DNA of 21,753 bases. Origin: a virus. Taxonomy: Duplodnaviria > Heunggongvirae > Uroviricota > Caudoviricetes. The stretch is from positions 1 to 21,753 of the IMG/VR virus record IMGVR_UViG_2526164691_000017; one strand, 5' to 3'. This document shows positions 1 through 19,252 of this stretch, piece after piece. Within the stretch, counting starts at the first letter, position 1. Each line of letters begins with the position of its first letter. A program made the position numbers and the translations under genes. Under the pieces are notes generated by a model. The model had not been told where the DNA came from, did not search any database, and worked only from the letters and a program-made list of their open reading frames with translations.

Positions 1-116
1 CGGGTGACGGCACCATAACCAGTCCTGCAGGATCAGGTAGCCATCAGTGGATTCAACCAGCTCCTGACGCTGGGCGCTGTAAGTGCCGTTATAGTTGCGC
101 GCTGTACTGGAAAAAC

Positions 117-1142
117 TCAGACGACTGCCCGCCGCCACGGCACGTCAACTGACCAATTACGAAAAGTTTCAAGGTTAGGATTGGGGCGATCCGACTTCAC
201 CATTCCGATTTCTTCGCCGGGTTTCAGATCGTCGTAAATAATGCCCGGCTGAATGGTAAGCTCACGTTCATTCTCCTTTCTGCCATTACCATCCGGTTCA
301 TAGCTCTGCCCGTCGCCTTTCCGGATGTACATCCCCAGAGCAGCGGCGATCCTTGCTGCAGTCAGCTCAGAATCTTCATATTCTTTCAGGGCACTGAGGC
401 GGATCAGCACACCGGACAATAAAGACGTCCCGCGCATCTGGTGCAGACGGCGAACAAATTTAAGATGCAGCATTCGCTCTGCATCCACTTCTTTGGTTTC
501 CATCTGCCGTCCGGATACGGGACGACTTTTATACACCAGATATTTTTCGGGACGCCCCCAGTCATCAACAAACACGCCCTGATTCAGCCTGTTGCTCTCA
601 TCACTGGTCATGGGAATAAAGTCCGGCTCGAGCGCCTCCAGCCAGAAATGAACACCGGCAGAAGGCGCCAGGCTGTTTATGCGCCCGGAAACCATCTGGG
701 CAAACACCTCACCATCGCGCAGCCAGGTACGCAGCATCAGACGTTCCAGCATCGGACGGGTAAACTGCCCGGTGACCTCCGGACTGACAGACCATTCACT
801 CCATCGGGTACGTATCTCCGCTGCCAGGTCACGGGCAATGGCCCCATTGCGTAATACCGGATGTGGCTCGACAATAATCCCGTTTTTCCCCACCACCCGT
901 TCTTCCAGCTTGTCAAATACACCAATGACCAGATCGTGGTTGTTATCAAGGTAACGGGCCTGCTCACGTAACGACACGGCCCCGTACTGGCTTAACTGGT
1001 CGGCAGTTCGGTTCTCCCGTCGGGCTTTGTGTGTCCGCGTCGTTTTTACGGCCTCATAAGCCTGGATCACCGCACGGGAACGCAGCCTTGCCGCTTTCCA
1101 TCCTGGTGAAAAAACGCCAATCACATCATCAAGAATTGCCAT
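117..1142 (-). CDS. Phage portal protein, apparently truncated at 341 aa (possible frameshift near 117-144)
   Basis: ORF 117..1214; likely start is the ATG at 1140-1142, overlapping the stop of the upstream gpW-like gene (TGATG). Position after large terminase and gpW matches lambda A-W-B order. 341 aa is short for a portal, and another frame stays open from about 144 to the window's left edge. Confidence 0.55.
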   Translation of the reverse strand: MAILDDVIGVFSPGWKAARLRSRAVIQAYEAVKTTRTHKARRENRTADQLSQYGAVSLREQARYLDNNHDLVIGVFDKLEERVVGKNGIIVEPHPVLRNGAIARDLAAEIRTRWSEWSVSPEVTGQFTRPMLERLMLRTWLRDGEVFAQMVSGRINSLAPSAGVHFWLEALEPDFIPMTSDESNRLNQGVFVDDWGRPEKYLVYKSRPVSGRQMETKEVDAERMLHLKFVRRLHQMRGTSLLSGVLIRLSALKEYEDSELTAARIAAALGMYIRKGDGQSYEPDGNGRKENERELTIQPGIIYDDLKPGEEIGMVKSDRPNPNLETFRNWSVDVPWRRAVV

Positions 1143-1360
1143 CAGAACCTCGCCAGCCGGTACCCGGGATGCCCCCGTCGTCGTGTAATCAGAGCCGCAA
1201 GGCGGCGCTCCCACTCCTGCCGTCCCTGCCGGATCTCAGATAAGTTTTCCATGGTCATCTGCTGACCATTAAAGGTGACGGATTTTCCGTCCAGCACCGC
1301 CATTTCAGCTTCCGTATAACGCTGAATCATGGCTTCAATATCATTCTGGTTCATAACCAT
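1142..1360 (-). CDS. gpW-like head-tail joining protein (72 aa)
   Basis: Small ORF between large terminase and portal; C-terminal RRRGxPG tail resembles lambda gpW as remembered; stop overlaps the portal start. Confidence 0.55.
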   Translation of the reverse strand: MVMNQNDIEAMIQRYTEAEMAVLDGKSVTFNGQQMTMENLSEIRQGRQEWERRLAALITRRRGHPGYRLARF

Positions 1361-1644
1361 CCTCCGGAAGTCAGCCAGGGGTTAACATCGTCAGTTACTG
1401 TTTTCTTCCGTTTTTGTTTTTTAACTAGGCGTGGATACCGGTTCCGGTGAGGATGACGGTTCGGTACTGTCCTGGACACACTCCAGCCAGGTCTCCGGCT
1501 CGCCCACTCCGGTGCATCCGGCCAGCGGATCTTTTCGTATCCATGCAGAATGACCAGAGCCTCGGCATACACCATCAGGTCGAAAAGCTTCGTTGGCACC
1601 GCGACCCGGCTTACTCCATTTCCCGTCACTGCTCCGCTCTTCAT
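1351..1644 (-). CDS. Hypothetical 97-aa basic protein between large terminase and gpW
   Basis: ORF start overlaps the terminase stop (TAATG) and its end overlaps the gpW start by 10 nt; Lys/Arg-rich centre. No homolog recognised. Confidence 0.3.
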   Translation of the reverse strand: MKSGAVTGNGVSRVAVPTKLFDLMVYAEALVILHGYEKIRWPDAPEWASRRPGWSVSRTVPNRHPHRNRYPRLVKKQKRKKTVTDDVNPWLTSGGWL

Positions 1645-3452
1645 TACGTCAGTTCGTCGTAAAACCAGCTCCCCAGCCAGTCAGGGAAATGCACATAGCC
1701 GGGACCTGGCGAGTCACGCCATAACGCGTTATTCACCCGGTCTTTCAGGGCATCCGTCTGAAGAAGCCAGAGCGGCACATCACCTGCGGCCTGCGCCCGT
1801 CGGCCCGTTCGTCCGGTGTTATCAGGGAATGTACGGGTGATCAGTTTTGCGCGCCGGATGCTGTCGCCCTTAAACAGGTAAATACGTTTACCAAGGCCAT
1901 CACGACGGCAACGACGCCAGAATTTATAGGCATTATCAGTGACCCCGTCTTCACCGCCGGAGTCCACCGCCATTGCCATCAGTCGCATTTGTTGAGAAGG
2001 GTCGGAGGCCAGCGGCCAGCTTTTATGAAAAACATCCGTCAGCAGGACATCCCAGTCTTCCGGATAGCTGGCTGGATCAATTCGCTGGCTCTCCCCGTCG
2101 CTGTCACCGCGCAATGACTGCGTGATGTTGTAACGATCAATAATCCAGCGTTCGCCACGGCTGCCATAGCCCGTTACCTGAACCACAAAACGGCGATGAC
2201 GTCCCGCCTGCACATCCACTGTCGCCACAAGGAAATTAACGCCATCCGGCACACTGCGGGAAGGAACTGGCTCTGCCCGCTGCTCAAGCAATTCACTTTT
2301 TCGTTGCTCCATGCTGGCACGAGGAAGATAAGGCAATCCCCAGTCGGTGTTGATAACCGCCCTGAGTGTTTCTTCGCTTCCTGTCGCTTCATACTCCTGT
2401 TCTGCAGTCAGTAATTTGTAAACCAGTTGCGCCCAGGTCTGATACGCAGCAGCTGGCCCTTCCATCCAGAAACTGGCGATACGGGAGCGGCGCGGTTCAC
2501 CGGAAACGTTGCCGTTACGATCAATGACCTGACCTTCACGCAACCAGACTCCTGCACTATTGAGCTCACGCTTTTTCTCCGCAGTGATAATGCCGCTGCA
2601 GTGCGGGCAAAGTAGATACGCCGCCTCACTGGCTTTAAAGGGATCCGGTTCATTACGGTAGCCGGTCATGGCATCCATGGCTGGCTGAAAATATTCACCG
2701 CAGTGCGGACATGACCAGTACCAGCGGCGGCGGTCACCACGATTGTAAAGGGAAAGAATACCAGTCGTCGGTGGCGCTTCATGAGGCGACTTACGTCGCC
2801 ATTTGCTGTCGCAGATGTCACGTCCCGGCGAGCTCTCCACCAGAGTCATCCCGGCGGACATAAATGTGGTGGTACGTTTTGAGGCCAGGGAGAAACCATC
2901 ACCCTCGCTGTCGATATTCTCCGGAAAACGGTCGTAATCGGTTAAGGCGACAAACCGGTAATCCGACGACGACATAATGTTGACCGAGGGCCAACCAATT
3001 TTAAGGAACGAGCCATCCCTGAACGTCTTATCATGGACATTATTGTCGTTACGACGTGGACTCATTCTTTTCTTTACCGCCGCACTGCTTCTGAACGTTC
3101 TGTCGAGGCGCTTTTTAGAATGCTCGCGGGCCTTATCTTCGGTCATCTGCACAACGAGCATGTCCGAAGGATCGCAAACGATGGTATAGACAATCCATCC
3201 ATCGATCAGACCAATGGTCTTCCCTGTTCGCGCAGGACCAACAAAAATCACCGCATCGTATTCACGCGATGCCAGGCAGTTCATGGGCTCAATGATGTAG
3301 GGTGTCAGTTCAGGATCCCATGGCACCGAGTTACCAGCCCCCTTGTGAACACGCATGAATTTTTTAACAGCCTCCGAAATCGGCATGCGACGTGGTGGGG
3401 AAAATCCTGCCGATATGTCCCTTCCCAAATTTCGGGCTGATGAAAAACCCAT
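1644..3452 (-). CDS. Terminase large subunit, lambda GpA family (602 aa)
   Basis: Architecture matches lambda gpA as remembered, including CPHCGE zinc-binding motif and C-terminal GYVHFP; GGAGG RBS 5-9 nt upstream of ATG at 3452; directly downstream of the Nu1-like gene. Confidence 0.85.
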   Translation of the reverse strand: MGFSSARNLGRDISAGFSPPRRMPISEAVKKFMRVHKGAGNSVPWDPELTPYIIEPMNCLASREYDAVIFVGPARTGKTIGLIDGWIVYTIVCDPSDMLVVQMTEDKAREHSKKRLDRTFRSSAAVKKRMSPRRNDNNVHDKTFRDGSFLKIGWPSVNIMSSSDYRFVALTDYDRFPENIDSEGDGFSLASKRTTTFMSAGMTLVESSPGRDICDSKWRRKSPHEAPPTTGILSLYNRGDRRRWYWSCPHCGEYFQPAMDAMTGYRNEPDPFKASEAAYLLCPHCSGIITAEKKRELNSAGVWLREGQVIDRNGNVSGEPRRSRIASFWMEGPAAAYQTWAQLVYKLLTAEQEYEATGSEETLRAVINTDWGLPYLPRASMEQRKSELLEQRAEPVPSRSVPDGVNFLVATVDVQAGRHRRFVVQVTGYGSRGERWIIDRYNITQSLRGDSDGESQRIDPASYPEDWDVLLTDVFHKSWPLASDPSQQMRLMAMAVDSGGEDGVTDNAYKFWRRCRRDGLGKRIYLFKGDSIRRAKLITRTFPDNTGRTGRRAQAAGDVPLWLLQTDALKDRVNNALWRDSPGPGYVHFPDWLGSWFYDELT

Positions 3453-3460
3453 TATTCCTC

Positions 3461-3987
3461 CTAGAGACTCTCTCCTTCCTCATCAGGAATTAATTCAGCA
3501 GCACAAGCCTCGTAGGATTTTTCCTGAAGAGTGTATCGCAGGTCATCAATGGCCTGCTGTACAACGCCGACGGCCTGAGGAGTCAGGGCGCAATCGCGTT
3601 CAAGAACATCCGGAATTGTCTCCAGAACCTGGACGACAGCCTTTCTCATGGACGAATAGACGATGACTACTTCATCAACGGGGATGAGTTTTCGCTGCTC
3701 CTTTTCCAGCTTGATCCTTTCATTTTCAGACTGGTACCAGTCCTTTCTCTCTTTCGGCTCCATACGGGATGGATCATGAACAGAGTCTGCTGCCTCATGC
3801 TTCACACTAAACAGGGCTGGCCCGACATGCTGCAGGGCGTAAACGGGGTTCCCCCTGACAGTCGCAGCCACAGGAGTGTTAGCCGCGAGGAGCCGTTTTT
3901 TACTGTGTCCCGGTGAAGCCCAAAGGCCTCAGCGATTTTAAAAACACTCCAGTAATAAGCATCACCGATCCCGCTCACATTTGACAT
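3461..3987 (-). pseudogene. Terminase small subunit (Nu1-like), frame-disrupted at a homopolymer near 3896-3901
   Basis: N-terminal part (MSNVSGIGDAYYWSVFKIAEAFGLHRDTVKN, in ORF 3802..4017) and C-terminal part (ORF 3461..3871) are in different frames. Adding one base to the T6 run (A6 on the coding strand) gives a continuous ~175-aa Nu1-like protein. GGAG RBS upstream of ATG at 3987. Confidence 0.55.
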
Positions 3988-4149
3988 AAGCAACTCCATC
4001 TGGCAGGTGAAAATCATGTTTATTTATATATTTCAATTAATTGCAAACTGGTCTAATGACAGGGAGAAAGAAATATTGTACAGGTGAAAAGAGAAATAAC
4101 TTTTAATTATCAATAAATTACCAAACATGCTGCCGCCGCCATGGAAATG

Positions 4150-4240
4150 CAAAAACTAGCCTTTTTCCGCGACGCTCCCGCCCCGTGGCAGGGGCCCCCA
4201 CCGGGAGGACCCGACAGCCTGACAGCCTGACAGCCGTGAT
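4150..4240 (-). other. cos-like site (cosN/cosB) upstream of the Nu1-like gene
   Basis: Minus strand reads GGGGCGGGAGCGTCGCGGAAAAAGGCTAGTTTTTGCATTTCC, which parallels the lambda left end GGGCGGCGACCTCGCGGGTTTTCGCTATTTATG as remembered; lies ~200 bp upstream of the Nu1 start as in lambda; adjacent 2.9-copy GACAGCCT tandem repeat at 4213..4235. Confidence 0.4.
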
Positions 4241-4371
4241 GAGCATCTGATACAGCGCTTTACATAATGGCATAGGAATAATTCAGAAGGACATCACAGC
4301 ATGCCCACACAAATTAGTGTGAGTGTCCTGTTTCTTCCTACGCACAGGACTGACGAGCATGAGGGGAAAAT

Positions 4372-4539
4372 ATGCGAACCATAAATGCCTCATCTTCAGC
4401 AATGCAACCGGCATCCGAACAGGACGATATTGTAAATTCACCTAATTACGAGGACATTGCAGTAGTTGAATTGCAGCTCTGTATTAGCCTGACAGTGACA
4501 GAATGCGATATTGACTCTGTCACAGGTGAAATAGTTTGA
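4372..4539 (+). CDS. Hypothetical small protein (55 aa)
   Basis: ATG at 4372 with GAGGGG RBS 6 nt upstream; acidic product; not in the ORF track (below 60 aa). Convergent with ORF 4560..4766. Confidence 0.2.
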   Translation: MRTINASSSAMQPASEQDDIVNSPNYEDIAVVELQLCISLTVTECDIDSVTGEIV

Positions 4540-4559
4540 ATGATTAGCAGTTATGGTGC

Positions 4560-4766
4560 TCAGTCAACCACCAGGGAATAATCCTTCGAATTCTTATCGT
4601 GCTTCACCAACGCTGCCTCAATTGCCCTGAATGCTTCCAGAGACACCTGATGTTCTATACATGCAATTACAACATCCGGGTAACTCATAGAAATGGTGCT
4701 ATTAAGCATATTTTTTACACGAATCAGATCCAACGAGACTTCATCAGCAGATTGTTCTTTATTCAT
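4560..4766 (-). CDS. Hypothetical protein (68 aa)
   Basis: ORF track; AT-rich; sits in the moron island between cos and ydfO. Not recognised. Confidence 0.3.
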
Positions 4767-5066
4767 TTTGTCGCTCCATGCGTTTGCTCGTCATCTAGCG
4801 GTTAAAATATTACTTCAAATCTTACTGCATAAAAGAGGAAAAGTATGAAAGTTTGAGTACATCGACCTTACATACATCTGTCGGTTGCATATCCCTCCTG
4901 GATGCCAGCAAGGCTCAATTTTGTTACGCAATCAACACTATTCATTAAAAACAGGCTTAATATTTGACATAAATCATCAACAAAACACAAAGAGGTCAGA
5001 CCAGATTGAAACAATAAACACGATAATGCTAACTACGCGCCATCGTATCACATGGAAGGTTTACCA

Positions 5067-5477
5067 ATGGCTCAGGCTGCCATTTTTAAAGAAATATTCG
5101 ATCAAGTGCGTAAAGATTTAAACTGTGAATTATTTTATTCTGAGCTAAAACGTCACAATGTCTCACTTTATATTTACTATTTAGCCACAGATAATATTCA
5201 CATTGTGTTAGAAAACGACAACATAGTGTTAGTAAAAGGACTCAAAAAGGTTGTAAATGTTAAATTCTCCAGAAACAAACATCTTATAGAGACCTCCTAT
5301 AATAAGTTGAAATCAAAAGAAATCACATTTCAACAATACAGGGAAAATCTTGCTAAAGCAGGAGTTTTCCGATGGGTTACAAATATCCAGGAACACCAAA
5401 GATATTACTATGCCTTTGATAACTCATTACTATTTACTGAAAGCATCCAGAAAACTACACAGATCTTACCACGCTAA
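5067..5477 (+). CDS. ydfO: YdfO/YbcV-like prophage protein (136 aa from the internal Met)
   Basis: ORF 5052..5477; starting at [11 protein letters not shown] gives 136 aa, the K-12 YdfO length; position next to gnsB matches Qin order; AT-rich. Confidence 0.55.
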
Positions 5478-5628
5478 ACCATAACGTCCGGCTTCTCTCA
5501 CTCCTGAGCCGGACTGCATTGGTTTAATAAAAACCATCAACAATTGTGATTTAGATATTCGGAACCATTCAAATATAACAAAACCCCGTAAAAACGAGGT
5601 TTATGGATAAATTTTATTATTGAATACA

Positions 5629-5802
5629 TCAGATTAAATTAATCTTGACATCATAGCTTTCAAGACCCGTCATTTTTTCCCGTGCGGTAAACTGAATACT
5701 GGTAACTTCTTTCCCGGTCTTTTTCTTAAGTTCAATAATTTTTTTTGTTATATATTCAGAAATATCTGCTTCTGCTTTTGTTTTTAAGTTTTCAATATTC
5801 AT
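5629..5802 (-). CDS. gnsB: GnsB-family protein (57 aa)
   Basis: Manual minus-strand translation gives MNIENLKTKAEADISEYITKKIIELKKKTGKEVTSIQFTAREKMTGLESYDVKINLI, closely matching K-12 GnsB as remembered (FTAREKMTGLESYDVKI); GAGG RBS; not in the ORF track (below 60 aa). Confidence 0.7.
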   Translation of the reverse strand: MNIENLKTKAEADISEYITKKIIELKKKTGKEVTSIQFTAREKMTGLESYDVKINLI

Positions 5803-5973
5803 CATTTCCTCTTTTAGTCTGTTATGACTTTCCAGTTACACAGTAAGTCGATTATATGGTGCAAACGTGTAAAAGATAAGATGAAACATCGCAATAATCA
5901 ACATACGATAGTCTAAATTTTACACAAACAGACAAAGAAAATTTTCCTGAATTATCAATACAATAGCATCAAA

Positions 5974-6129
5974 TCAACTCAAGAGCCTTATTGCTGCTTC
6001 CAGAATTTCTTCTGAAGTAACATGTCGATCCGCGGCTACATAAATGACTTTATGATCTCCGGTCAGAGATGGAAACCCTGCGGCCATTACAGTAAGGTGT
6101 GTTTTTTCGCCATTTGGATATTCACGCAT
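5974..6129 (-). CDS. ynfN: YnfN-like small protein (51 aa from internal Met)
   Basis: ORF 5974..6165; starting at MREYPNGEKTHL gives exactly 51 aa; location between gnsB and cspI matches K-12 Qin order. Confidence 0.5.
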   Translation of the reverse strand: MREYPNGEKTHLTVMAAGFPSLTGDHKVIYVAADRHVTSEEILEAAIRLLS

Positions 6130-6247
6130 GATGGTGTTAACTCCAGTCATCGCTGGCACTACCACTGCTGGTTCAGAGTTAAAAAAACTATGATTTTTTT
6201 CATGATGTTACCGTAGTATGTGAGTATCCATCGAATAGATACCAAGC

Positions 6248-6267
6248 AAAAAAGCTCCCGAAGGAGC
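6248..6267 (-). terminator. Putative rho-independent terminator downstream of cspI
   Basis: GCTCC-CGAA-GGAGC hairpin followed on the minus strand by a T6 tract (A6 at 6248-6253 on plus). Confidence 0.4.
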
Positions 6268-6474
6268 CTTCATTTTCACTTTTTTAAATCCAACGACAGA
6301 CGGCTGGCATTTAAGTATTGTGAAATATTATCAAATGTAATCATCATTGATTTACAAAAGATACATTTTGCCCCGAAAGGATTCATGTCAGAAACATCAA
6401 AAGATGATGTTCTATACTGGGAACCATGACAACACGGGCATCTAAAGTGAATATGGTTTGTAATATTGTCTACC

Positions 6475-6687
6475 TCAAAGCGCCACTACATGAACAGCGG
6501 CAGGACCTTTAGGTCCGTTCTCAATACCAAATTCAACTTCCTGATTCTCAGTTAATGTTTTGAAATCGTTGCTCTGAATTGCTGAGAAATGGACAAACAC
6601 ATCTTTGCTGCCATCTTTCGGCGTGATGAAACCAAAACCTTTTTCAGGGTTAAACCATTTCACTAAACCAGTCATTTTGTTAGACAT
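6475..6687 (-). CDS. cspI: Cold-shock protein, CspA family (70 aa)
   Basis: [38 protein letters not shown] has the RNP1/RNP2 cold-shock-domain motifs; matches K-12 CspI as remembered; ~360-nt AT-rich upstream region typical of csp leaders. Confidence 0.85.
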
Positions 6688-7049
6688 AATTATTACCTTT
6701 TGAAGAAATTAGCCCTTGGGCAGAATGGTCCGAAAAAAAATATCAGAGAGAAAAACCAACAAGGAAATCTCAAGAGGTACAAATAATAAAATTATAACAA
6801 TGACTGCTTCAGATAAATTTGTAACAAACCAGAACACCATTAACGCATGATTAACCACCCATAGCAAGGATTACTTTTGTAAAGAAAAACACAGCAATGA
6901 AAGAATAGCTTTATTTATTAATAAAACGTGTCATTCTGATTAAGACCTTTTATCTTACCCTTAAGATTTCAGGAATTTTGGCTCATGGAAGAGTCCTTTT
7001 TATTTAAATTTTACATTCCGCGATGTAAATGTTCCGATTTAATATTACC

Positions 7050-8073
<1,024 letters not shown>

Positions 8074-8077
<4 letters not shown>

Positions 8078-8385
8078 ATATATTTATGATGAGGACGCTC
8101 GTGCTTATTGGCAGGATTTTCAATCTTAAAGGAGTACTGATGCTGCAGATAAGACTCAACTTTTTCTGACAATTTTTCTGCTACTTCCAGGAAGACTTGC
8201 CGGACGCTCCTTCTGGCTGCTGCCTCATAAAACTCCAGCGCAGCTCCTTCAACACGGTCCATGGCGACATCCAGGTCAAAAATTTCACCGTCAAAGCGTT
8301 CCTTGTCCTGTAAGGCTACAGTTACCGTAACTTTATTCTCAAAATTACGGACTCCTTTCACAACCAGTTCATAGTCTTGAGTCAT
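8074..8385 (-). CDS. ydfR: YdfR-like protein (103 aa) between holin and endolysin
   Basis: Length and position (essQ-ydfR-rrrQ) match K-12 Qin; overlaps the endolysin start by 4 nt. Confidence 0.6.
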
Positions 8386-8389
8386 TGGA

Positions 8390-8605
8390 TTACTCTCCTC
8401 TCGCAGCCTTACGCCTGTCTTCTTTAATCTTGAAATAAAGATTTGTCAGATACGTCAGCAGGCCAAAAACCAGGCTACCCAGCACACCGATTGCAGCCCA
8501 CTGTGACGGAGTTACTTTATCGAGTAACTGTAATGCCCAGAAACCAGCATTACCCGCCGATGTGCCATAGGCAACACCTGTTGTTAACTTATCCATTGAT
8601 TTCAT
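8390..8605 (-). CDS. essQ: Class II holin, S21-type pinholin (71 aa)
   Basis: From the internal Met, [71 protein letters not shown] is 71 aa with two TM segments and a charged tail, matching phage 21 S21 and K-12 EssQ as remembered. Confidence 0.8.
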
Positions 8606-8824
8606 ATCCTCACCCCGATGTACACGGATGGTGCAATATGTTTGAAAAAGATCGGAGTCTACGGGGTAGTTTTGACAGCACACGTTGTTCTCAACGGCGC
8701 TAAAGAAACATACACATTAAAAATGTGAGTAATTATTTTGAAAGAAAGTCATATATAAAATAATAATACGAGAAATGTTTTCATATTTAGTGTACTGTAT
8801 ACGGCCATTATACAGGAAAAGCCT

Positions 8825-8995
8825 ATGTCAGAACGTAAAGACTCAAAATCACGCCGTAATTATCTCGTTAAATGTTCCTGCCCAAACTGCACCCAAGAGT
8901 CAGAACACAGTTTTTCAAGAGTACAAAAAGGTGCCCTTTTGATCTGCCCTCATTGCAACAAAGTATTCCAGACAAATCTTAAAGCTGTAGCCTGA
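8825..8995 (+). CDS. Hypothetical small zinc-ribbon protein (56 aa; CxxC...CxxC)
   Basis: ATG at 8825 with AGGAAAA RBS; product has CPNC and CPHC pairs; followed by a strong hairpin at about 9055-9078. Confidence 0.35.
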   Translation: MSERKDSKSRRNYLVKCSCPNCTQESEHSFSRVQKGALLICPHCNKVFQTNLKAVA

Positions 8996-9054
8996 TTGAT
9001 TTTATTAGTAACAAGTATTTTTTATATTTTAATAATATATTTAAAGCAGATAAT

Positions 9055-9078
9055 AAAAAACCCGCCTGAGCGGGTTTG
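9055..9078. terminator. Rho-independent terminator hairpin (AACCCGC-CTGA-GCGGGTT), possibly bidirectional
   Basis: GC stem with tetraloop; T-rich run on the minus strand (TTTTTTATTAT) and TTTGAG on plus; downstream of cspB (minus) and the small Zn-ribbon ORF (plus). Confidence 0.55.
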
Positions 9079-9358
9079 AGATTGTGGTGCTTTTTGTGGG
9101 AGTCATCCACTTACGCACTTTGTTTTGCGATGCCAGCAGTTAGCTTCTGCTGTGAAACTATTCATGCAGCAAACCTGCACTTCACCACAATGGTTAGCAT
9201 ACTTTTCCTGATTAAGATTTTGCCAAATATGCTAGCCATTGTTTCATGTATTGGACCTCCTTACTTTTTATTAAAGAGATCCAATATTCACTACTCTGTC
9301 CGTATCTCTACTCAGGCATCAGCCTTCTTCGTTATCGTATACAGACGAGCGATGAATT

Positions 9359-9574
9359 TTAATCAGTAATGATGACATTTGCTGCTGCAGGACCTTTAGC
9401 ACCTCTCTCTATAGAGAAGGTAACCTTTTGACCTTCAAATAAGGTTCGATAATTATCATTCTGAATCGCAGAAAAATGCACAAACACATCTTTACTACCA
9501 TCAACAGGAGAAATAAAGCCGAAACCTTTATCAGCGTTAAACCATTTTACTAAACCAGTCATTTTATTTGACAT
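9359..9574 (-). CDS. cspB: Cold-shock protein, CspA family (71 aa)
   Basis: [53 protein letters not shown]; cold-shock-domain motifs; matches K-12 CspB as remembered. Confidence 0.85.
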
Positions 9575-9884
9575 TCTACATTCCTTAACTTGAGCCTTTC
9601 GGCATAAATGGTTTGCATAACAGAAACGACTTCGTACTTAATTGGAGAGACTCAAAGAAGGAATAAGTGAATAACACCTGAAATGAGAACTGCTTTAGTA
9701 AACTACTTCGTATATCGTCTGTTCTTCAAACCGACGCAGTCATTAACTCATAGTTGAACATATGAAGCAATGTTTATTTTAGACATCCAGCCACCTTCAA
9801 TCCTATCAAAAAAGTAGTTTTCTCCAGGAACGTGTGTATGGTGCACCAGGTTATCAGTATTAAGGAGTTTTTCTGTCCCCTAAA

Positions 9885-10081
9885 ATGACAGGAATTGTCA
9901 AAAACTTTGACTACAAAAGCAGCAAAGGTCTTATATTCCCATCCGATGGCGTATCGATGCCCAGCTTCACGTTTCAGCTCTCAATCTTCGAGATGCAGAA
10001 GAAATTACCACAGGATTACGCGTGGAATTTTGCTGGATAAATGGTTCGCGTGGACCTTCAACTGCCAATGTTTATCCCGGG
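9885..10081 (+). pseudogene. cspF: cspF-like cold-shock gene, frame-disrupted near 9950 and lacking its normal stop
   Basis: From ATG 9885 the frame gives [22 protein letters not shown] (CspF/CspH-like N-terminus) then stops after 55 codons; a second frame gives [42 protein letters not shown] (CspF-like C-terminus) and then runs on as ORF 10022..10411. A missing C at GGC(C)GT would explain the shift. Confidence 0.5.
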
Positions 10082-10117
10082 ATGAGATTCAATATCTCTA
10101 TTGCCCCATTTAAAGCA

Positions 10118-10150
10118 CAAAAACCCGCTTATAAGCGGGTTTTCTACTTT
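10118..10150. terminator. Rho-independent terminator hairpin; candidate tR'-like late terminator downstream of quuQ
   Basis: AAACCCGC-TTATAA-GCGGGTTT hairpin flanked by T-runs on both strands; lies between the Q-like gene and the lysis genes, where lambda has PR'/qut/tR'. Confidence 0.5.
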
Positions 10151-10249
10151 TTTCTAAACGTCGGATACACAAAGCCCATCGTTGAGAAAATCTTATCCAT
10201 ATTTTTTGAAAAATGCAAACATCATGTCGCCATCTTCAGCAAAAATCAT

Positions 10250-11002
10250 TTATCTCGTCACCTTCCTCAATTGCGCTTCCGCGTATGCTTCTTCCTGCCA
10301 GCACTTTGTTACCAGTTTACCAATGACGTCCGCATACCCCTTATACCACTGATAATCGGTCAGGTCTGGTACCAGCTTCTGGACATGACGTCGTGCCAGC
10401 GTGGTCGGTAAACGACTAAACCGGTTTCCATTACAACGCCCACAAATCTTATATACCGGTACGCCATGAAACCGGGTTCTTTTTTCATCCAGAACAATCC
10501 CTTTACCCTTACACCCTCTGCACGCTGTGCTGACTTCGCCCTTACCATGGCAATGCTGACATAGTTCCTTCACCCATTCTTCCTTGATTACAGATTCCCC
10601 GCGTCTGTAGTGTTTCACCACTTCGCGCAATACATTATAAAATCCCGTACCTGAACAATGCTCACAGCGAGCCTTACTTGCCGCAGACCTGGAGTAATCA
10701 GCAAAGGCAAAATTCACGAGGTAAGGAATAATCTGTAACCGGATTTCTTCACTCAATTTGTTCAATGTCGGGTTATCCAGTGCCATCGCGTAATTTAGCA
10801 GGCCTTCAATCGCAAACTGAGCGTCCTGAACACCAACTTTTGCCAGAAATAAGGCCAACCCAAGTGGTGCTTTCGACTGCACCATCCCCTGCGCTGCCAT
10901 TACATCCGTAATTGTTAAACAACCGGTGCCTGTCGCTGGAGCGTCATCGCTCAATTTTGGAGATTTTGGGGAGTAATATTTTGGTAAGGCTTCAAGGTTC
11001 AT
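10250..11002 (-). CDS. quuQ: Late-gene antiterminator Q-like protein (250 aa from internal Met)
   Basis: ORF 10250..11032; starting at [10 protein letters not shown] gives 250 aa, the K-12 QuuQ length; several CxxC zinc-binding pairs; position upstream of the lysis cassette. Confidence 0.75.
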
Positions 11003-11015
11003 GCTCGTTCTCCAC

Positions 11016-12065
11016 TTACGCCAGTACGCCAATTGCCAGCGCGCGATCGATAAAACGAAATATCAGCTCCAGTTGGGAGCCATACTTCTCTTCAAATGCC
11101 ACTGTATCCGTATGCAGCTCGTTGTGATGCTTTCTGCACAAAGGCAACACAAAGAGATCATGTGCTTTTGTTCCCATTCCGCCCTGCCCGTGACCAATCA
11201 GATGATGCGGATCGTCGGCTGGCATACCGCAGCAAGCACACGGCTGTGTCTTAACCCAACGTGTGTATTTCTCCTTAACCCAGCGGCGACGTTTAGGCAG
11301 CTTCATGAAAGATTCCGGAGACTCTGGATCAACGGTGATGCTTACCACCGCCTTTTCCTGTGGTGTTTTTTGTTGCTGGTGGGCGTAAGGCAACGGTGCA
11401 AGATTTTTTGTGCGTTGTTTCAATATGCTGGTGGCGGTCTGCTCTCCCGGTACGATGTCGCTTTCGCGGTACACCGAGCAGATTTTTTCCGCTGGTAATC
11501 CCAGCGAACGACGCGATACAGCCTCAGGTAGTGCATCCACCACCTGATTGCAGACCGCCCACCAGGATAATTCAGCCAAAGATAATTCCCGCTCCTGCGT
11601 ACCGCTTATTGCGTGACGGATGACGTCAATCACCCATGCTGTCAGATTTTGTTGAGCAAGCAGCTCCAGTGATTCCGATGTCTGGTCACGCAGTTGGTTG
11701 TCGCAGTGCCAACACAACACCATTGCGCCGGTACCATAACGGTGAATGACTGTTTCAGAGTGATGGTAATCGCCATTAGGCCACTGGCAGGATGTAACAT
11801 GACGTAATAGCCAGTCAGACAATGCGCCAACACCGCCAGCAGCACGAATCACCCGTTCGTTACTAAAAAACGGCAGCAATGTTTTGTCTTCCGCCAGCGA
11901 CTGGCGAACGGCAGGAACGACTCCGGATGGCAGATTACGCATGCTTTTTGGTTCCGGTTCCACCAGCACTCGAGGATTATGAAATATCTGTATGGATTCA
12001 CGGCCCGGCTTAAGGACCACCAGCCCAAGCTCAGGCACCAGAACAGGTCTAAGTAATACCCGCAC
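11016..12065 (-). CDS. ydfU: YdfU-like protein (DUF968-type, Cys/His-rich C-terminus), 349 aa from a GTG start
   Basis: ORF 11016..12104; GGAGG-TAAC-GTG at 12065 gives 349 aa, the K-12 YdfU length; C-terminal CACCGMPADDPHHLIGHG...CRKHHNELH motif. Confidence 0.7.
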   Translation of the reverse strand: MRVLLRPVLVPELGLVVLKPGRESIQIFHNPRVLVEPEPKSMRNLPSGVVPAVRQSLAEDKTLLPFFSNERVIRAAGGVGALSDWLLRHVTSCQWPNGDYHHSETVIHRYGTGAMVLCWHCDNQLRDQTSESLELLAQQNLTAWVIDVIRHAISGTQERELSLAELSWWAVCNQVVDALPEAVSRRSLGLPAEKICSVYRESDIVPGEQTATSILKQRTKNLAPLPYAHQQQKTPQEKAVVSITVDPESPESFMKLPKRRRWVKEKYTRWVKTQPCACCGMPADDPHHLIGHGQGGMGTKAHDLFVLPLCRKHHNELHTDTVAFEEKYGSQLELIFRFIDRALAIGVLA

Positions 12066-12066
12066 G

Positions 12067-12345
12067 TTACCTCCAGATCCGTTGCTGGAAAGTGCGGGAC
12101 GCACGTGGTGGGCGTTCGGAGTAAGGCAATCTGACTGAGATTATCCAGTGACGGTAGTCGAGGCTAAGGGCTTTCTTAACCTCGTATCCGCGCCTGCGGT
12201 AACACTGAATTATCCATTCAGCCTGCTCTTCAGTGCATGGAGGGTGTTGGAACCATTCAGACTTGAATGCGTGAGAATACCGCTCGTGCGTGCAGACAAG
12301 AACGGGCGAATTATCAGAATTGTAATATTTTACGTTGCGTGCCAT
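12067..12345 (-). CDS. Hypothetical 92-aa protein, translationally coupled to ydfU
   Basis: ORF track; its stop codon overlaps the ydfU RBS; Cys/His-containing. Either this ORF or 12412..12663 may correspond to K-12 rem; I cannot say which. Confidence 0.45.
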   Translation of the reverse strand: MARNVKYYNSDNSPVLVCTHERYSHAFKSEWFQHPPCTEEQAEWIIQCYRRRGYEVKKALSLDYRHWIISVRLPYSERPPRASRTFQQRIWR

Positions 12346-12411
12346 CGGTTTTCTCCGGTGGCACGGTGTTACTCAGCGGGAGTTCAGCCCCGCGCAAGAT
12401 TGTAGATGAGT

Positions 12412-12663
12412 TTATTCTTCTGCAAAAGCTGAAAAGCCTGCTTTTATTCCGATCTCTTTCAGTGCCTGTAATGAAGTGACAAACTCACCTTCGCGCAAGA
12501 TAAATCCGTCTGTCACTCGACCATCCACAAAATTAATTAACGCAGCCCCATTCTTTCGCAAACACATAATGCGGTAATGACTAACAAAATTTCCATTTTC
12601 AACGCACACAGCATAGAGGCCATCTTCACAAAAAATTTTACGCAGTTCTTCGATGTTCATCAT
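12412..12663 (-). CDS. Hypothetical 83-aa protein (possibly the rem equivalent)
   Basis: ORF track; 83 aa equals the annotated length of K-12 Rem and it sits between ydfU and hokD, but I do not remember the Rem sequence. Confidence 0.45.
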   Translation of the reverse strand: MMNIEELRKIFCEDGLYAVCVENGNFVSHYRIMCLRKNGAALINFVDGRVTDGFILREGEFVTSLQALKEIGIKAGFSAFAEE

Positions 12664-12780
12664 CAGAATCCTTCCGGATAATTAGCTCTCCCCTTTAAGG
12701 GACCATCCCTCTTATCCCTGCGCGCTACTTAAGTATTTTTGATTCTATTCCGGCACCGTCCAGAACTTCAAACGCGTTGA

Positions 12781-12811
12781 AAATAAAAACAAAAACCCGC
12801 CGAAGCGGGTT
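12781..12811 (-). terminator. Rho-independent terminator downstream of hokD
   Basis: AACCCGC-CGAA-GCGGGTT hairpin followed on the minus strand by TTTTTGTTTTTATTT. Confidence 0.65.
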
Positions 12812-12879
12812 AAGTGCGGGTGCGTTGAGGATGCCTGCCACATCAGAGGTGGCGAGGGATTTCTCCCTCGCCGGGTTTC

Positions 12880-13035
12880 TTACTCCTCAGGTTCGTAAGC
12901 TGTGAAGACAGCGACCTCCGTCTGGCCGGTTCGGATTCGTACCTCGCAGAGGTCTTTCCTCGTTACCAGTGCCGTCACTATGACGGTTAAACAGATGACG
13001 ATCAGGGCGATTAACATCGCCTTTTGCTGCTTCAT
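12880..13035 (-). CDS. hokD: Hok-family type I toxin (51 aa)
   Basis: From the internal Met of ORF 12880..13092: MKQQKAMLIALIVICLTVIVTALVTRKDLCEVRIRTGQTEVAVFTAYEPEE, a single-TM Hok/Gef peptide matching K-12 HokD as remembered; AAGGAG RBS upstream. Confidence 0.8.
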   Translation of the reverse strand: MKQQKAMLIALIVICLTVIVTALVTRKDLCEVRIRTGQTEVAVFTAYEPEE

Positions 13036-13758
13036 AGCCTGCTTCTCCTTGCCTTTCGGCACGTAAGAGGCTAACCTACATATGTCTAGCATGAAATTGG
13101 CCTCAGATTAATGTTAAGCGTCTTGCAGGACGCGTAATGTTAACTGGGGCTTTTCTCTATCTGCCGTTGGTGTTCATGCCCGAGGCAGATAGCCTCAAGC
13201 ACCCGCAGCCATTCTACTTAACTACCGTTACCTCGCCAATGTGAAATCAGTCAGAAAGGCGATCCATAAGAACAATAGCAAGACAATAAATCGCCATTAC
13301 AGCCGTAATAGCCAGCGCACATTTGAGAACCAGCACCACAACCTCCTGTATTGGACGTAGACCAGTCCTGATGAATATGAGGCTGTCTCGTCAGTGATTC
13401 AATACAACTATTGGGTATAGTTTCTCTGATTTTTTCTGTGGAAATGGGGCACAACCACTAGTCACCACCAGCACTTCTTTTAATACGCAAAGTCCGACAC
13501 AAGCTAACCTTCTAGTCCGCTTTGAGCGAAAAACAGCCATAATTTAGTGCCACGTATATAATGATAGAGCTATTCAAGCTAGCAATTCACATGTAAAAAT
13601 TCAGAGGGTAGATGCACATAGTTATAAATGTTGGCTCCATCGACAAATTGCGGTCTCAAGTACATTTTAGACTGGCCCCCTGAATCTCCAGACAACCAGT
13701 ATCACTTAAATAAGTGATAGTCTTAATACTAGTTTTTAGACTAGTCATTGGAGAACAG

Positions 13759-14124
13759 ATGATTGATGTCTTAGGGCCGGAGAAACGCAGACGGCGTACC
13801 ACACAGGAAAAGATCGCAATTGTTCAGCAGAGCTTTGAACCGGGGATGACGGTCTCCCTCGTTGCCCGGCAACATGGTGTAGCAGCCAGCCAGTTATTTC
13901 TCTGGCGTAAGCAATACCAGGAAGGAAGTCTTACCGCTGTCGCCGCCGGAGAACAGGTTGTTCCTGCCTCTGAACTTGCTGCCGCCATGAAGCAGATTAA
14001 AGAACTCCAGCGCCTGCTCGGCAAGAAAACGATGGAAAATGAACTCCTCAAAGAAGCCGTTGAATATGGACGGGCAAAAAAGTGGATAGCGCACGCGCCC
14101 TTATTGCCCGGGGATGGGGAGTAA
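13759..14124 (+). CDS. insC: IS2 transposase OrfA (InsC), 121 aa
   Basis: [56 protein letters not shown]: HTH plus leucine-zipper OrfA; A6G slippery heptamer (GGGCAAAAAAGTGG near 14068-14081) for the -1 frameshift into insD. Confidence 0.9.
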
Positions 14125-14987
14125 GCTTAGTCAGCCGTTGTCTCCGGGTGTCGCGTGCGCAGTTGCACGTCATTCTCAGACGAACCGATGACTGGATGGA
14201 TAGCCGCCGCAGTCGTCACACTGATGATACGGATGTGCTTCTCCGTATACACCATGTTATCGGAGAGCTGCCCACGTATGGTTATCGTCGGGTATGGGCG
14301 CTGCTTCGCAGACAGGCAGAACTTGATGGTATGCCTGCGATCAATGCCAAACGTGTTTACCGGATCATGCGCCAGAATGCGCTGTTGCTTGAGCGAAAAC
14401 CTGCTGTACCGCCATCGAAACGGGCACATACAGGCAGAGTGGCCGTGAAAGAAAGCAATCAGCGATGGTGCTCTGACGGGTTCGAGTTCTGCTGTGATAA
14501 CGGAGAGAGACTGCGTGTCACGTTCGCGCTGGACTGCTGTGATCGTGAGGCACTGCACTGGGCGGTGACTACCGGCGGTTTCAACAGTGAAACAGTACAG
14601 GACGTCATGCTGGGAGCGGTGGAACGCCGCTTCGGCAACGATCTTCCGTCGTCTCCAGTGGAGTGGCTGACGGATAATGGTTCATGCTACCGGGCTAATG
14701 AAACACGCCAGTTCGCCCGGATGTTGGGACTTGAACCGAAGAACACGGCGGTGCGGAGTCCGGAGAGTAACGGAATAGCAGAGAGCTTCGTGAAAACGAT
14801 AAAGCGTGACTACATCAGTATCATGCCCAAACCAGACGGGTTAACGGCAGCAAAGAACCTTGCAGAGGCGTTCGAGCATTATAACGAATGGCATCCGCAT
14901 AGTGCGCTGGGTTATCGCTCGCCACGGGAATATCTGCGGCAGCGGGCTTGTAATGGGTTAAGTGATAACAGATGTCTGGAAATATAG
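14082..14987 (+). CDS. insD: IS2 transposase OrfB (InsD), DDE catalytic domain, 301 aa
   Basis: ORF track; overlaps insC in the -1 frame; IS3-family integrase-core protein with the DDE triad (the final Glu in the [10 protein letters not shown] segment). Confidence 0.9.
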
Positions 14988-15045
14988 GGGCAAATCCACA
15001 TTTATTAATGTTGCCCCCGCATTAACAAATCATCAAGGTGACGAC

Positions 15046-16833
15046 ATGGACGATATTAATATCAGCCTCGACGAACTTAACACTATTGATTTATCCCCCT
15101 TAATCCAGAGTAAGCTGCCAGTTACCTGCTTTGATATCACAAAGTATCTTTCTAGCCTAGGTGATGGAAGAGCGGAGATAAGACTGCTAACCCATATTTG
15201 CGGTTTTCACTTTCGTCCCGAAAATCCACAGGTACCATTTGGTCCGTGCTTTCAAAGCAGCCAAGGTAGATCTGCAATTCCGGATGACATTAACGGGTTG
15301 TCGCTGGAGGTACTTTCTCAATTTTGCCCGACGATAGAGCTACCCGAACTTCAAGCTCGTATTGCTGATACACTTTGGGTTCGTAAAATTGGTGGAATCC
15401 GTTTTCCTTTGCTGGCAGTCCGTGCTTATTATGCGTCCAGTATAGCTATTATGACATCGCAAGGGACGTGGGTTAGTGCTTTAGAACGCCTAGAGCGTGC
15501 GCTTAGGCTGTGTTGTTTTTTTCGAAAGCATACTGATTTCAGGGATGAATTTGATCAGCTTTCGGCACATCTACTAGCAGAGTATGAACGTACCAGAGAA
15601 CAAGGCGATTCACCTTATCCGCTGCGACTCCTGCAACTCGATATCGACTGTAAAGTGAGTGAGCCATCTTTTATTGCCCAGGAACTCCTGTTTCTGACAA
15701 AAAACTATCTGGCTCAAAAATTATTTTCATTTGCCGTCGATGCCTGTAAAACCGCAATCCCGATTGCGAATAGGTGCTGTGACAGAGATACACAGTTTGA
15801 ATTCTGGCGGCTTCTTGCCGATACACATCTGGAAGAGTCAAAATTCCAAGATGGCGGTATGATTTCGGCAGCCTGCATGCAGAATGCTATTGAAGCACTG
15901 GCTAATATTCCAGGAACCCGAATAGAACGTCTTGCGCTGTATGAAGAAATGCGTGATTACCAAATCGAATCCCGTCACCAGATGTCTATCCTTCAGTCTC
16001 CCCCTCAAGATATTAGTGAGATTGTCCATCAAGCCAAGAGTCGGGTAGTCGGAAGAGATTTGTTTGATATGGTTTTCAGACTTGCGATGCTGGTCTGTCG
16101 GCCAACCAGCATTGAGAGACTTAAGGCTCAAGCAATAGAACAAAAGGCCAACAGCATAGCTTGGATGTTTGGATCAACACATATTGATCATGAGGGAATG
16201 ACACTTGCTCGCATACCCGCAGGATTGGGGATTGATGATGCAAATGGGGCAGTTATTTGGCCCATAATGATGACGAGAATGCGTATCGACCATGAGTTGG
16301 CAGTAGCTGGGCAAATTATTCCTGCTACAGATGAGATCACAATGAAATATCCAATCTCGGAGGCGTTTTTTCGCGATATGTTCATCAATCATCCCTTCAT
16401 CCCGTTTGGGCATGAAGAGTTTTTCATCAAGGGTATGGTTTGCGGTTTCAATGGAGATTTTATGACGGCATGCCACGTGTTGATTCCCCAGATCGAAAAT
16501 AGTCTGAGATATGTGGCTAAAATTAAAGGTGAGGAACCATCGCAGCTTCACGGGGACGGTTCGCAAGAGCGAAATGGACTCAAGGGATTACTAGATAATC
16601 CACTGATTATTGAAGCTTTCGGCGTAGACATAATTGGCAATCTTCAGGCCTTACTGGTAGATAAAATCTATGGTGATTTACGAAATCAACTAGCTCACGG
16701 ATATGTGCCTGCCGGTTACTACAATCAACCTCCCTGCATTTTTGCATGGTGGCTTGTATTGCACATTCTAATGAACCCTACGGCGAGATACTGGCAAGCC
16801 ACTTATGGCCAAGAGAGTGAGGCTCAGACTTAA
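15046..16833 (+). CDS. Large uncharacterised cargo protein (595 aa) with C-terminal HEPN-like R-x4-H motif; candidate defence/abortive-infection effector
   Basis: ATG at 15046 preceded by AAGGTGA RBS (the ORF-track start at 14962 lies inside IS2 and is an artefact). RNQLAHG encoded at 16681-16701. Plus-strand gene convergent with the minus-strand early operon; GC content appears below the flanking genes by eye. No K-12 Qin counterpart recalled here. Confidence 0.7.
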   Translation: MDDINISLDELNTIDLSPLIQSKLPVTCFDITKYLSSLGDGRAEIRLLTHICGFHFRPENPQVPFGPCFQSSQGRSAIPDDINGLSLEVLSQFCPTIELPELQARIADTLWVRKIGGIRFPLLAVRAYYASSIAIMTSQGTWVSALERLERALRLCCFFRKHTDFRDEFDQLSAHLLAEYERTREQGDSPYPLRLLQLDIDCKVSEPSFIAQELLFLTKNYLAQKLFSFAVDACKTAIPIANRCCDRDTQFEFWRLLADTHLEESKFQDGGMISAACMQNAIEALANIPGTRIERLALYEEMRDYQIESRHQMSILQSPPQDISEIVHQAKSRVVGRDLFDMVFRLAMLVCRPTSIERLKAQAIEQKANSIAWMFGSTHIDHEGMTLARIPAGLGIDDANGAVIWPIMMTRMRIDHELAVAGQIIPATDEITMKYPISEAFFRDMFINHPFIPFGHEEFFIKGMVCGFNGDFMTACHVLIPQIENSLRYVAKIKGEEPSQLHGDGSQERNGLKGLLDNPLIIEAFGVDIIGNLQALLVDKIYGDLRNQLAHGYVPAGYYNQPPCIFAWWLVLHILMNPTARYWQATYGQESEAQT

Positions 16834-17051
16834 AGTGAATAAGTTTACGAAGTTGGCACTTCCGGATGCATGTCCATATGAGTTGAGGCGATTTGGTTAA
16901 TAAGGTTGAGTGCTGCTGAAATTATTCGATGTCCGCTTTTGGCACAAAGCGGACAACCACGCCAGATCTACCCTGTGCCATGAAAAATGAGAATGTCAAT
17001 TCACTCCTGAACTAATGCTTTTTAATCTAGTAACGTCTAAAATACCTAACA

Positions 17052-17453
17052 TTATCCCTGATAAAATGCCAGTATGCGCTGCATAACTTCACTCATCCGG
17101 CACTCGCGACAGATTATGTTTAGGCGACTGTCGTAGCGACGTATTTCTCCATCAGGTAACGACCAGATAAGGTCCGGATCAACCACAGCTGTTTTCTTCA
17201 CCTTTGCCCTCGAGAGTTTTTTGCGGGCGTTTTGCCAGTCCTTACGCGCCTGTTCAGACGGGAATAACCCGTAGCCGGAGTTGTATACATCGCCACTGGC
17301 TACCAGCTCTCTGGCAAGAACGCTCATCAGATATCTAGTCGCACCTGTTTTAGCTTCCAGTTGCCGTAACGTCTCACGACCGCTCTGGCGCACGAGTTCC
17401 ACCACCTGCCCTTTAATTTTTTCCCGCTCTTCTTGTGTAAAAACTTTTGCCAC
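17052..17453 (-). CDS. Hypothetical 133-aa protein, last gene of the leftward early operon
   Basis: ORF track; possible HTH-like segment (TLRQLEAKTGATRYLMSVLAREL); basic C-terminal half. Not recognised. Confidence 0.45.
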   Translation of the reverse strand: MAKVFTQEEREKIKGQVVELVRQSGRETLRQLEAKTGATRYLMSVLARELVASGDVYNSGYGLFPSEQARKDWQNARKKLSRAKVKKTAVVDPDLIWSLPDGEIRRYDSRLNIICRECRMSEVMQRILAFYQG

Positions 17454-17493
17454 AAGTCCCCCTTAAAATTACCTCATGACCTGAAATCAAAAC

Positions 17494-18513: not shown

Positions 18514-18961
18514 TTGCTTTTTCTATAAGTTCGTCAGTTTCACGATCCACTACGGCAGGATCAGCAAAAAGCAGTCCGGACTCCACCACATCGCCATATT
18601 CTTTGTTTAACCCGGCGATCATGTACGTGATGCTTTTTCCGTCACTAATTTCACGATACAACCTGAAATCATTAATCCGGATAGCCTCCATAATTGCAGG
18701 CACTAGCGCCGTGAACTTTTCACGCTTATCCCTGGTGTCGATAGCCTTCCAGCGTTCGAATATCTTCACTCGATTAACGCCAAGCGCTCGCTGATCAACC
18801 GCGCCACCTTCATCTGTGACACGCTGAACATCGATGTTCGGGCGCTCTTTCAAAGCCCAGAATGCTTCAGTGATTAATATCGTCGCCTGCTCCTGTGTCA
18901 TTCCTGGTCGACATATCCAGGCATCCAGAGCCTCACGAGCCTGTTCAGGAGTGATTTTCAT
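18440..18961 (-). CDS. YdaT-like protein (173 aa), possible CII-type regulator analogue
   Basis: Sits immediately downstream of the Cro-like dicC, as ydaT follows ydaS in Rac-type prophages; similar size. Sequence similarity is only a weak impression. Confidence 0.4.
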   Translation of the reverse strand: MKITPEQAREALDAWICRPGMTQEQATILITEAFWALKERPNIDVQRVTDEGGAVDQRALGVNRVKIFERWKAIDTRDKREKFTALVPAIMEAIRINDFRLYREISDGKSITYMIAGLNKEYGDVVESGLLFADPAVVDRETDELIEKAIAFKLAYRQQYQQKAGWNYEPSFC

Positions 18962-19175: not shown

Positions 19176-19185
19176 AGCCCCCTCT

Positions 19186-19203
19186 TGTTAGACTTTTCTA
19201 ACA
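19186..19203. promoter_or_regulatory. Putative DicA operator: palindrome TGTTAGA-CTTT-TCTAACA in the dicC-dicA divergent promoter region
   Basis: Perfect 7-bp inverted repeat with 4-bp spacer in the 77-bp intergenic region; the same half-sites recur downstream of dicA. Confidence 0.6.
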
Positions 19204-19252
19204 TTATTGTGCGCGGGATATCTAAGTCAAGAAAAATTAGAATTACCTAACT

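Follow-up and report, generated by a model that had tools for sequence, protein, structure and literature searches.

Genes and features at the locus

The window analyzed here (the whole stretch of DNA, 21,753 nucleotides long) is a Qin/mEp460-like lambdoid prophage that shares 99.9% identity with the chromosome of Escherichia coli DEC9B and about 99.6% with O26:H11 str. 11368. A site resembling the cos of phage lambda lies inside a 570-bp stretch without annotated genes in RefSeq. The genes around it are on the minus strand and comprise, on one side, the prophage ‘moron’ genes cspI, ynfN and gnsB, a DUF1398 gene and a 68-aa ORF and, on the other, those for the small terminase, the large terminase, a head-tail adaptor and the portal. 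Small ORFs running across the site, such as 4118-4273 or the ‘hypothetical proteins’ of HannyBb, were considered as genes and rejected, since RefSeq annotates none there. The coordinates of the individual elements are collected in Table 1.

Table 1 Predicted elements of the cos locus and the adjoining terminase genes in the window
Feature	Position	Strand	Remarks
Tandem repeat GGCTGTCA x2.9 (GACAGCCT on the plus strand)	4213-4235	-	Directly abuts cosQ
cosQ heptamer GGGTCCT	4206-4212	-	Same letters as lambda cosQ
Spacer, 19 nt, from cosQ to the ACG before the nick	4187-4205	-	Houses palindrome GGGGCCCC (4191-4198)
cosN	4170-4185	-	12-nt cohesive end GGGCGGGAGCGT (4183-4172); CG flanks at 4185-4184 and 4171-4170
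I2-like conserved segment CGCGGAAAAAGGCTAGTTTTTG	4150-4171	-	Directly right of the cohesive end; position as lambda I2
IHF consensus TATCAATAAATTA (WATCAANNNNTTR), candidate I1	4108-4120	+	bp 64-76 from the left end
TTTTCACCTG copy 1, candidate small-terminase binding site	4081-4090	-	bp 94-103; putative
TTTTCACCTG copy 2, candidate small-terminase binding site	4004-4013	-	bp 171-180, closely upstream of the small terminase start; putative
Small terminase gene, Pfam DUF1441	3461-3999	-	Broken in the window by a 1-nt deletion (A7 to A6) at 3902
Large terminase gene, gpA family	1351-3452	-	ATPase and endonuclease domains; indels at 1645, 1582, 1497 and 1426

Read on the minus strand from 4235 to 4167, the sequence runs GGCTGTCA GGCTGTCA GGCTGTC, GGGTCCT, CCCGGTGGGGGCCCCTGCC, ACG, GGGCGGGAGCGT and CGCGG. 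From 4212 onward, this gives GGGTCCT, 19 nt and ACG/GGGCGGGAGCGT/CGCGG (slashes mark the predicted nicks), corresponding to a cosQ, spacer and cosN of lambda type. The cos region contained no terminator-like sites. A role of its palindrome and repeat portion as terminator or promoter was likewise considered and rejected, the sole promoter-like site being located elsewhere.

Several features lie at a distance from this locus. An IS2 element (~13759-14987) between the hokD/rem region and a DUF4209 gene (~15046-16833) is also present in DEC9B and is missing from several otherwise similar prophages. Tandem repeats occur near the start of the DUF1398 gene (5200-5241, minus strand; 21 bp x2.0, 85% matches) and within a 339-aa ORF (17494-18513, minus strand; 12 bp x2.8 at 17964-17996 and 23 bp x3.7 at 18034-18117). 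In DEC9B, this ORF is annotated as encoding a hypothetical protein and lies downstream of cro-like and ydaT genes; its repeats resemble iterons of a lambdoid replication origin.

Resemblance to the lambda cos

For comparison with lambda, the right and left ends of its genome were joined and aligned to the window. Over the stretch from cosQ to the right flank inclusive, lambda and the window agree in 31 of 47 aligned columns, with GGGTCCT, CCGGTG, ACG/GGGCGG and T/CGCGG among the retained bases. These comprise all known critical elements. When the bases common to both sites were turned into a search pattern, GGGTCCT-N19-ACGGGGCGG-N6-CGCGG, the window gave a single match (4167-4212, minus strand, 0 mismatches), and none of 100 dinucleotide-preserving shuffles matched even with two mismatches permitted. 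These data bear out an earlier note on this DNA, which had quoted the minus-strand string GGGGCGGGAGCGTCGCGGAAAAAGG and compared it to the lambda cosN and left end; the letters from 4184 to 4160 read exactly so.

By analogy with lambda, the minus-strand nick is predicted between 4184 and 4183 and the plus-strand nick between 4172 and 4171, 12 bp apart. Of the features by which a lambda-like cos is recognized, three were found together, namely a cohesive end with CG flanks, cosQ in its expected position and a location next to gpA-type terminase genes. A literature search for the 12-mer GGGCGGGAGCGT and its reverse complement returned just unrelated eukaryotic papers.

Phage genomes that begin at the predicted nick

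Of 50,697 phage records searched by blastn with the cos region, 25 match. Among them, Escherichia phage Tritos (OV696610) and phage cdtI (AB285204/NC_009514) have record starts that coincide with window position 4183, which is the initial G of GGGCGGGAGCGT. When the last 120 bases of Tritos are placed before its first 220, the window locus is recreated with five single-base differences in 340 bp. None of these falls between the repeat and bp 110, and the few that separate the two cos sites lie in cosB. The joined ends also carry the three-copy repeat and the palindrome GGGGCCCC.

Tritos is prophage 3 of the adherent-invasive E. coli strain LF82, and is spontaneously induced; it was obtained from a plaque on MG1655 hsdR-, and imaging showed a siphovirus (PMC9928086). 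Since Tritos forms plaques, essentially this cos exists in at least one viable phage. The publication contains no whole-word mention of cos, cohesive or termini (PMC9928086), and the starts of the Tritos and cdtI records may have been set by analogy with lambda instead of being measured. We regard them as strong circumstantial evidence for genome ends at 4183. Among the IMG/VR contigs listed, nearly all of which are prophages in isolate genomes, none ends at the cos site.

In a further record, that of phage mEp460_4F5 (LR595868), the first base lies 5 nt upstream of the position predicted for the left nick, with CCACG/GGGCGG... (locus L133, 1-30), and 3 nt are missing at the predicted right nick, where GGGCGGGAGCG is followed by a three-base gap and CGG (end of L132). 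Assembly of virion DNA that truly ends at the nick positions could cause such a defect.

That the likeness to the lambda cos arose by chance, or that the block has some other function, for example in late transcription, is exceedingly improbable. The lambda-derived pattern was absent from every shuffled sequence, two phage records begin at the predicted nick, the location directly upstream of terminase genes is kept in more than 100 contigs, and no promoter-like or terminator-like signal is present at the site. A lambda-type cos accounts for the locus, as the earlier note had proposed, with two phage records starting at the nick and the gene for a gpA homologue adjoining.

Terminase proteins and candidate cosB elements

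The start codon of the small terminase gene lies at bp 185 from the nick (ATG 3999, cdtI annotation) or at bp 197 (ATG 3987, RefSeq and Tritos), compared to bp 191 for lambda nu1, in agreement with the earlier note, which had placed the site at the lambda distance from the Nu1 start. The designation of the gene as Nu1-like in that note applies to the position and, probably, to the architecture of the protein, and fails at the level of family. The intact orthologue matches PF07278 (DUF1441; 1.6e-44) and gave no profile match to Phage_Nu1 (PF07471), and BLASTP against lambda Nu1 was not significant (E = 4.6). In cdtI and Tritos, the DUF1441 gene is annotated as the small terminase. Structure prediction suggests an N-terminal MerR/Xis-type winged helix-turn-helix followed by long helices, that is, a model with the Nu1-like arrangement of an N-terminal winged helix-turn-helix and a helical core; Foldseek matches of the predicted winged domain were weak (E ≥ 0.05).

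The large terminase contains GpA_ATPase (4.2e-80) and GpA_nuclease (1.8e-86) domains and aligns with lambda gpA over nearly its whole length (24% identity, 627 alignment columns, E = 3e-22). Neither terminase subunit had a significant match in sequence searches of the PDB.

Between the I2-like segment and the small terminase gene, the IHF consensus at bp 64-76 is the sole exact match in the 21.7-kb window. Since 1.15 matches are expected by chance, just its position argues for function: it has the orientation of the I1-like matches of lambda (bp 74-91) and a similar distance to the nick. The two copies of TTTTCACCTG form an exact 10-mer direct repeat with 77-bp spacing, and a second, weaker pair, AATTTATTGA and AATTAATTGA, is spaced identically. 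The number of such repeat pairs in cosB does not exceed that in shuffled sequences (fraction reaching the observed count, 0.12). In nine IMG/VR contigs among the matches listed, the first TTTTCACCTG copy is replaced by TTTTCAGCTG; variation among 40 copies of this cosB type (type A) is too low for footprinting. A search of the window cosB for lambda-style R sites found just the direct TTTTCACCTG pair, unlike the inverted R3/R2 layout. Of the two kinds of motif that the earlier note had suggested looking for, an exact IHF consensus match was recovered and R sites of the lambda style were not.

Conservation and modularity across IMG/VR

An exact-match scan of IMG/VR with the first 24 nt of the left end retrieved at least 120 contigs. 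This query forced identity up to ...AAAGG; conservation of the next letters, CTAGTTTTTG, was not forced. At least eight unrelated upstream flank types occur among these contigs, all converging exactly at GGGTCCT, and three contigs among the matches listed have the cosQ variant GGCTCCT. The spacer is mostly variable in sequence, with GGGGTGGCC, GGGGGTCCC, GGGGGGCCC, CAGTGTGTCC and others found in relatives, and 19 nt long in 114 of the 119 contigs listed; sites of the lambda type have 20 nt here.

On the other side of the cohesive end, CGCGGAAAAAGGCTAGTTTTTG is common to three cosB types; beyond about bp 34, their sequences are unrelated. One is represented by the window, cdtI and Tritos, another by mEp460 and ev081 and the third by PhiR40_1. 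All three contain an ATTGAT core at ~70 bp from the nick, and each type is followed by a different variant of the DUF1441 small terminase. Phage mEp460_ev081 (LR597641; L010, 1062-1257) has a perfect 98-bp tandem duplication, possibly real and possibly an assembly artefact, which begins 22 nt inside the left end. The duplicated unit covers the I2-like segment together with the greater part of cosB, ATTGAT core included.

To sample other cohesive ends, a second, degenerate scan was conducted with GGGTCCT-N18-24-ACGGGGCGG. It yielded the lambda end GGGCGGCGACCT, GGGCGGGAGCGT and about twenty rarer right halves, a diversity that fits the published rule by which cosQ, bp 1-6 and the CG flanks are selected and bp 7-12 vary. 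In the IMG/VR sample, the gene after GGGCGGGAGCGT belongs to the DUF1441 family in 101 of 109 cases and to the Nu1 family in none, and Nu1 genes follow the lambda-type ends and those differing at bp 8, 9 and 11 (8/9/11-type). Across loci L012-L241, one cosQ-cosN block precedes these two small terminase families, which are without detectable sequence similarity; DUF1441 goes with GGGCGGCGCGCT and other ends in addition to GGGCGGGAGCGT.

A variable repeat beside the conserved site and a palindrome in its spacer

The earlier note had also reported an 8-bp tandem repeat in 2.9 copies beside the site. Tandem Repeats Finder returned the same array (4213-4235, period 8, 2.9 copies, 100% matches, unit GACAGCCT). 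By our estimate, a perfect 23-nt period-8 array arises by chance with a probability of about 4^-15 per position and period and is unexpected in 21.7 kb. The repeat-bearing flank on the cosQ side is present in 441 of 5,426 complete E. coli genomes. With a 91-nt query, 165 genomes matched at ≥99% identity, the matches listed spanning 91 nt, equivalent to three copies; 122 matched at 95-99%, again with 91 nt spanned in the matches listed; and 140 matched at 90-95%, where those listed span 83 nt (two copies) and, in one case, 99 nt (four copies). A two-copy allele (L243) and a four-copy allele (L242, strain ETEC1747) were read directly, and their cos is otherwise identical to that of the three-copy window. 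Two imperfect copies are present in mEp460, ev081 and PhiR40_1, and none in cdtI-type and several other flanks.

The existence of two-, three- and four-copy alleles indicates that the repeat arises by slippage, and this variation, together with its absence from cdtI, places it outside the conserved cos. It is very unlikely that the AGGCTGTC array is a functional part of cos, extending cosQ or binding a protein and in this way making packaging termination depend on copy number. Its direct contact with cosQ, with no spacer in between, would suit such a role, as would the retention of at least two imperfect copies in the mEp460, ev081 and PhiR40_1 lineages despite their differing cosB. However, cdtI and at least six other flank types share cosQ-cosN and have no repeat, and cdtI lacks it even though it keeps the same cosB and terminase. 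The range of copy numbers at otherwise identical sites is, moreover, the behavior of neutral slippage, and lambda has nothing similar upstream of cosQ. Slightly less probable still is a modulating effect of the array on cosQ recognition by the translocating terminase, through a bound protein or DNA geometry, in which case the two-, three- and four-copy alleles would differ in phage yield or in read-through into neighboring DNA. From the alleles and flanks compared, the repeat is best described as a slippage-prone, copy-number-variable sequence inherited with one particular flank and lying outside cos.

The palindrome GGGGCCCC, also pointed out previously, is present at 4191-4198, in the non-conserved spacer. 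As 8-bp palindromes are expected ~85 times in a window of this size (estimate), it is unremarkable in itself and is an incidental feature of this variable segment.

The apparent terminase frameshift

In the window sequence, the small terminase gene is truly frameshifted, an A7 run reading A6 at 3902; adding one A restores a 179-aa ORF. An 86-nt segment around this position was queried against all complete E. coli genomes and gave 769 matches. None of these 769 genomes has the A6 allele and no match reaches ≥99% identity; the best matches listed differ from the window by that single base. Relative to DEC9B, a finished genome and the closest strain, the window has ten single-base indels and 12 substitutions in 16-6188 and no indels and one substitution in 6189-21753. 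The indels are located at 17, 16, 145, 155, 1426, 1497, 1582, 1645, 3902 and 6188. The affected part is the packaging and head-gene third of the window, with a cluster of four indels spread over 220 bp in the large terminase gene and another four over 140 bp in the portal gene (16-155). Several are single-base insertions outside homopolymer runs, in a region that is repeated among prophages. In DEC9B and O26:H11 11368, the corresponding 175-aa, 699-aa and 502-aa genes are intact, and the large terminase is likewise intact at 699 aa in cdtI.

Because the A6 allele is private to the window and is one of ten indels confined to 16-6188, an assembly error is likely, and the frameshift is probably a draft-assembly consensus error and not gene decay. 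The prophage could instead be a relic with an intact cos and truly inactivated packaging genes, packaged only by a co-resident prophage terminase of the same specificity. The lesions in three packaging and head genes would agree with such a history, and help in trans is conceivable as the terminase region occurs in up to seven places per E. coli genome. We nevertheless consider a relic unlikely, given that A6 is absent from all 769 genomes, that a nearly identical strain differs by indels in one part of the window alone and has intact genes, and that clustered non-homopolymer insertions in a prophage-repeated region look like consensus errors, not decay. A consensus error would also alter the reading of the earlier note, which had contrasted a complete cos with a frameshifted terminase: both are found in the sequence, and the contrast between them is probably an artefact of sequence quality.

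Proposed function and relation to known cos sites

Taken together, the minus-strand region from 4212 to about 4000 is very probably the cos of a lambdoid prophage of the mEp460/cdtI/Tritos type in an O26-like E. coli. We infer its mechanism by homology with lambda, from the nick positions to IHF binding and the small-terminase sites. During late growth, the DUF1441 small terminase would bind cosB (about bp 35-185) by its N-terminal winged helix-turn-helix, and bending of the DNA by IHF at bp 64-76 would help to position the gpA-family large terminase on cosN. Nicking of the strands 12 bp apart would then generate 5' overhangs of GGGCGGGAGCGT, with window position 4183 as the left chromosome end. 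Packaging would proceed leftward in the window, taking in the terminase, portal and head genes, and terminate at the next cos, where cosQ (4212-4206), cosN and the I2-like segment would be needed. In lambda, cosQ is the signal for packaging termination, with its role and conservation covered in PMC4669245, and I2 is needed for termination (PMC4669245).

This assignment predicts the start of the packaged genome, at 4183, and the direction of packaging. It identifies an intact cos of the same type as those of two deposited phages, one of them the plaque-forming Tritos, and serves as a warning that the apparent terminase frameshift is not to be taken as prophage decay. The feature itself is already known: a lambda-type cos of this kind is represented in deposited phages and fits published natural variation, and we do not regard it as novel. 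On a broader level, phages with Nu1-type and phages with DUF1441-type small terminases use one cosQ-cosN block, which is combined with three or more cosB variants, and this shared block may help to predict cross-packaging or termination between prophages in multi-lysogenic pathogenic E. coli.

The closest known systems are Tritos and cdtI, which agree with the window in the 12 nt GGGCGGGAGCGT, in cosB and in the DUF1441/gpA terminase pair. Their terminase genes are intact, whereas the window copies contain single-base indels. cdtI further differs by an unrelated, repeat-free sequence upstream of cosQ and by a spacer with GGGGTGGCC where the window has GGGGGCCCC.

With lambda, the locus shares a candidate IHF-type site, identically oriented and ~65-90 bp away from the nick, a terminase start at ~bp 190 and a gpA-family large terminase. 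The differences are an unrelated cosB sequence in which no R3/R2 inverted pair of the lambda style was recognized, a small terminase of DUF1441 instead of Phage_Nu1 and a large terminase just 24% identical to gpA. cosQ and the nick are 22 nt apart here, compared to 23 nt in lambda, and the cosQ-cosN spacer of 19 nt is likewise one base longer in lambda (20 nt). The cohesive end GGGCGGGAGCGT is identical to lambda GGGCGGCGACCT at 8 of 12 positions, with the same bp 1-6 and differences at bp 7, 8, 9 and 11.

Natural cosN variants have reportedly been surveyed by Vahanian et al. 2017 (Feiss and co-workers). The window fits the pattern of variation seen in N15, phiD326 and Gifsy-1. Lambda-like phages have an invariant cosQ, bp 1-6 of the cohesive end and CG flanks, with variation confined to bp 7-12 of that end, the N15 end differing from that of lambda at bp 9 and 12 and the Gifsy-1 end at bp 8, 9 and 11 (PMC4669245); the Gifsy-1 record begins at attP, not at cos. 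A modular layout has been described for lambda and phage 21 (PMC4669245), which share cosQ-cosN and have their specificity in cosB and the small terminase. Here, three cosB types follow the shared block. The lambda and phage 21 pairs use Nu1 homologues, whereas the modules at the present locus use DUF1441 proteins with putative packaging specificities. The underlying pattern, a conserved cosQ and left half of cosN combined with a variable right half and cosB, is that described by Feiss and co-workers (PMC4669245).
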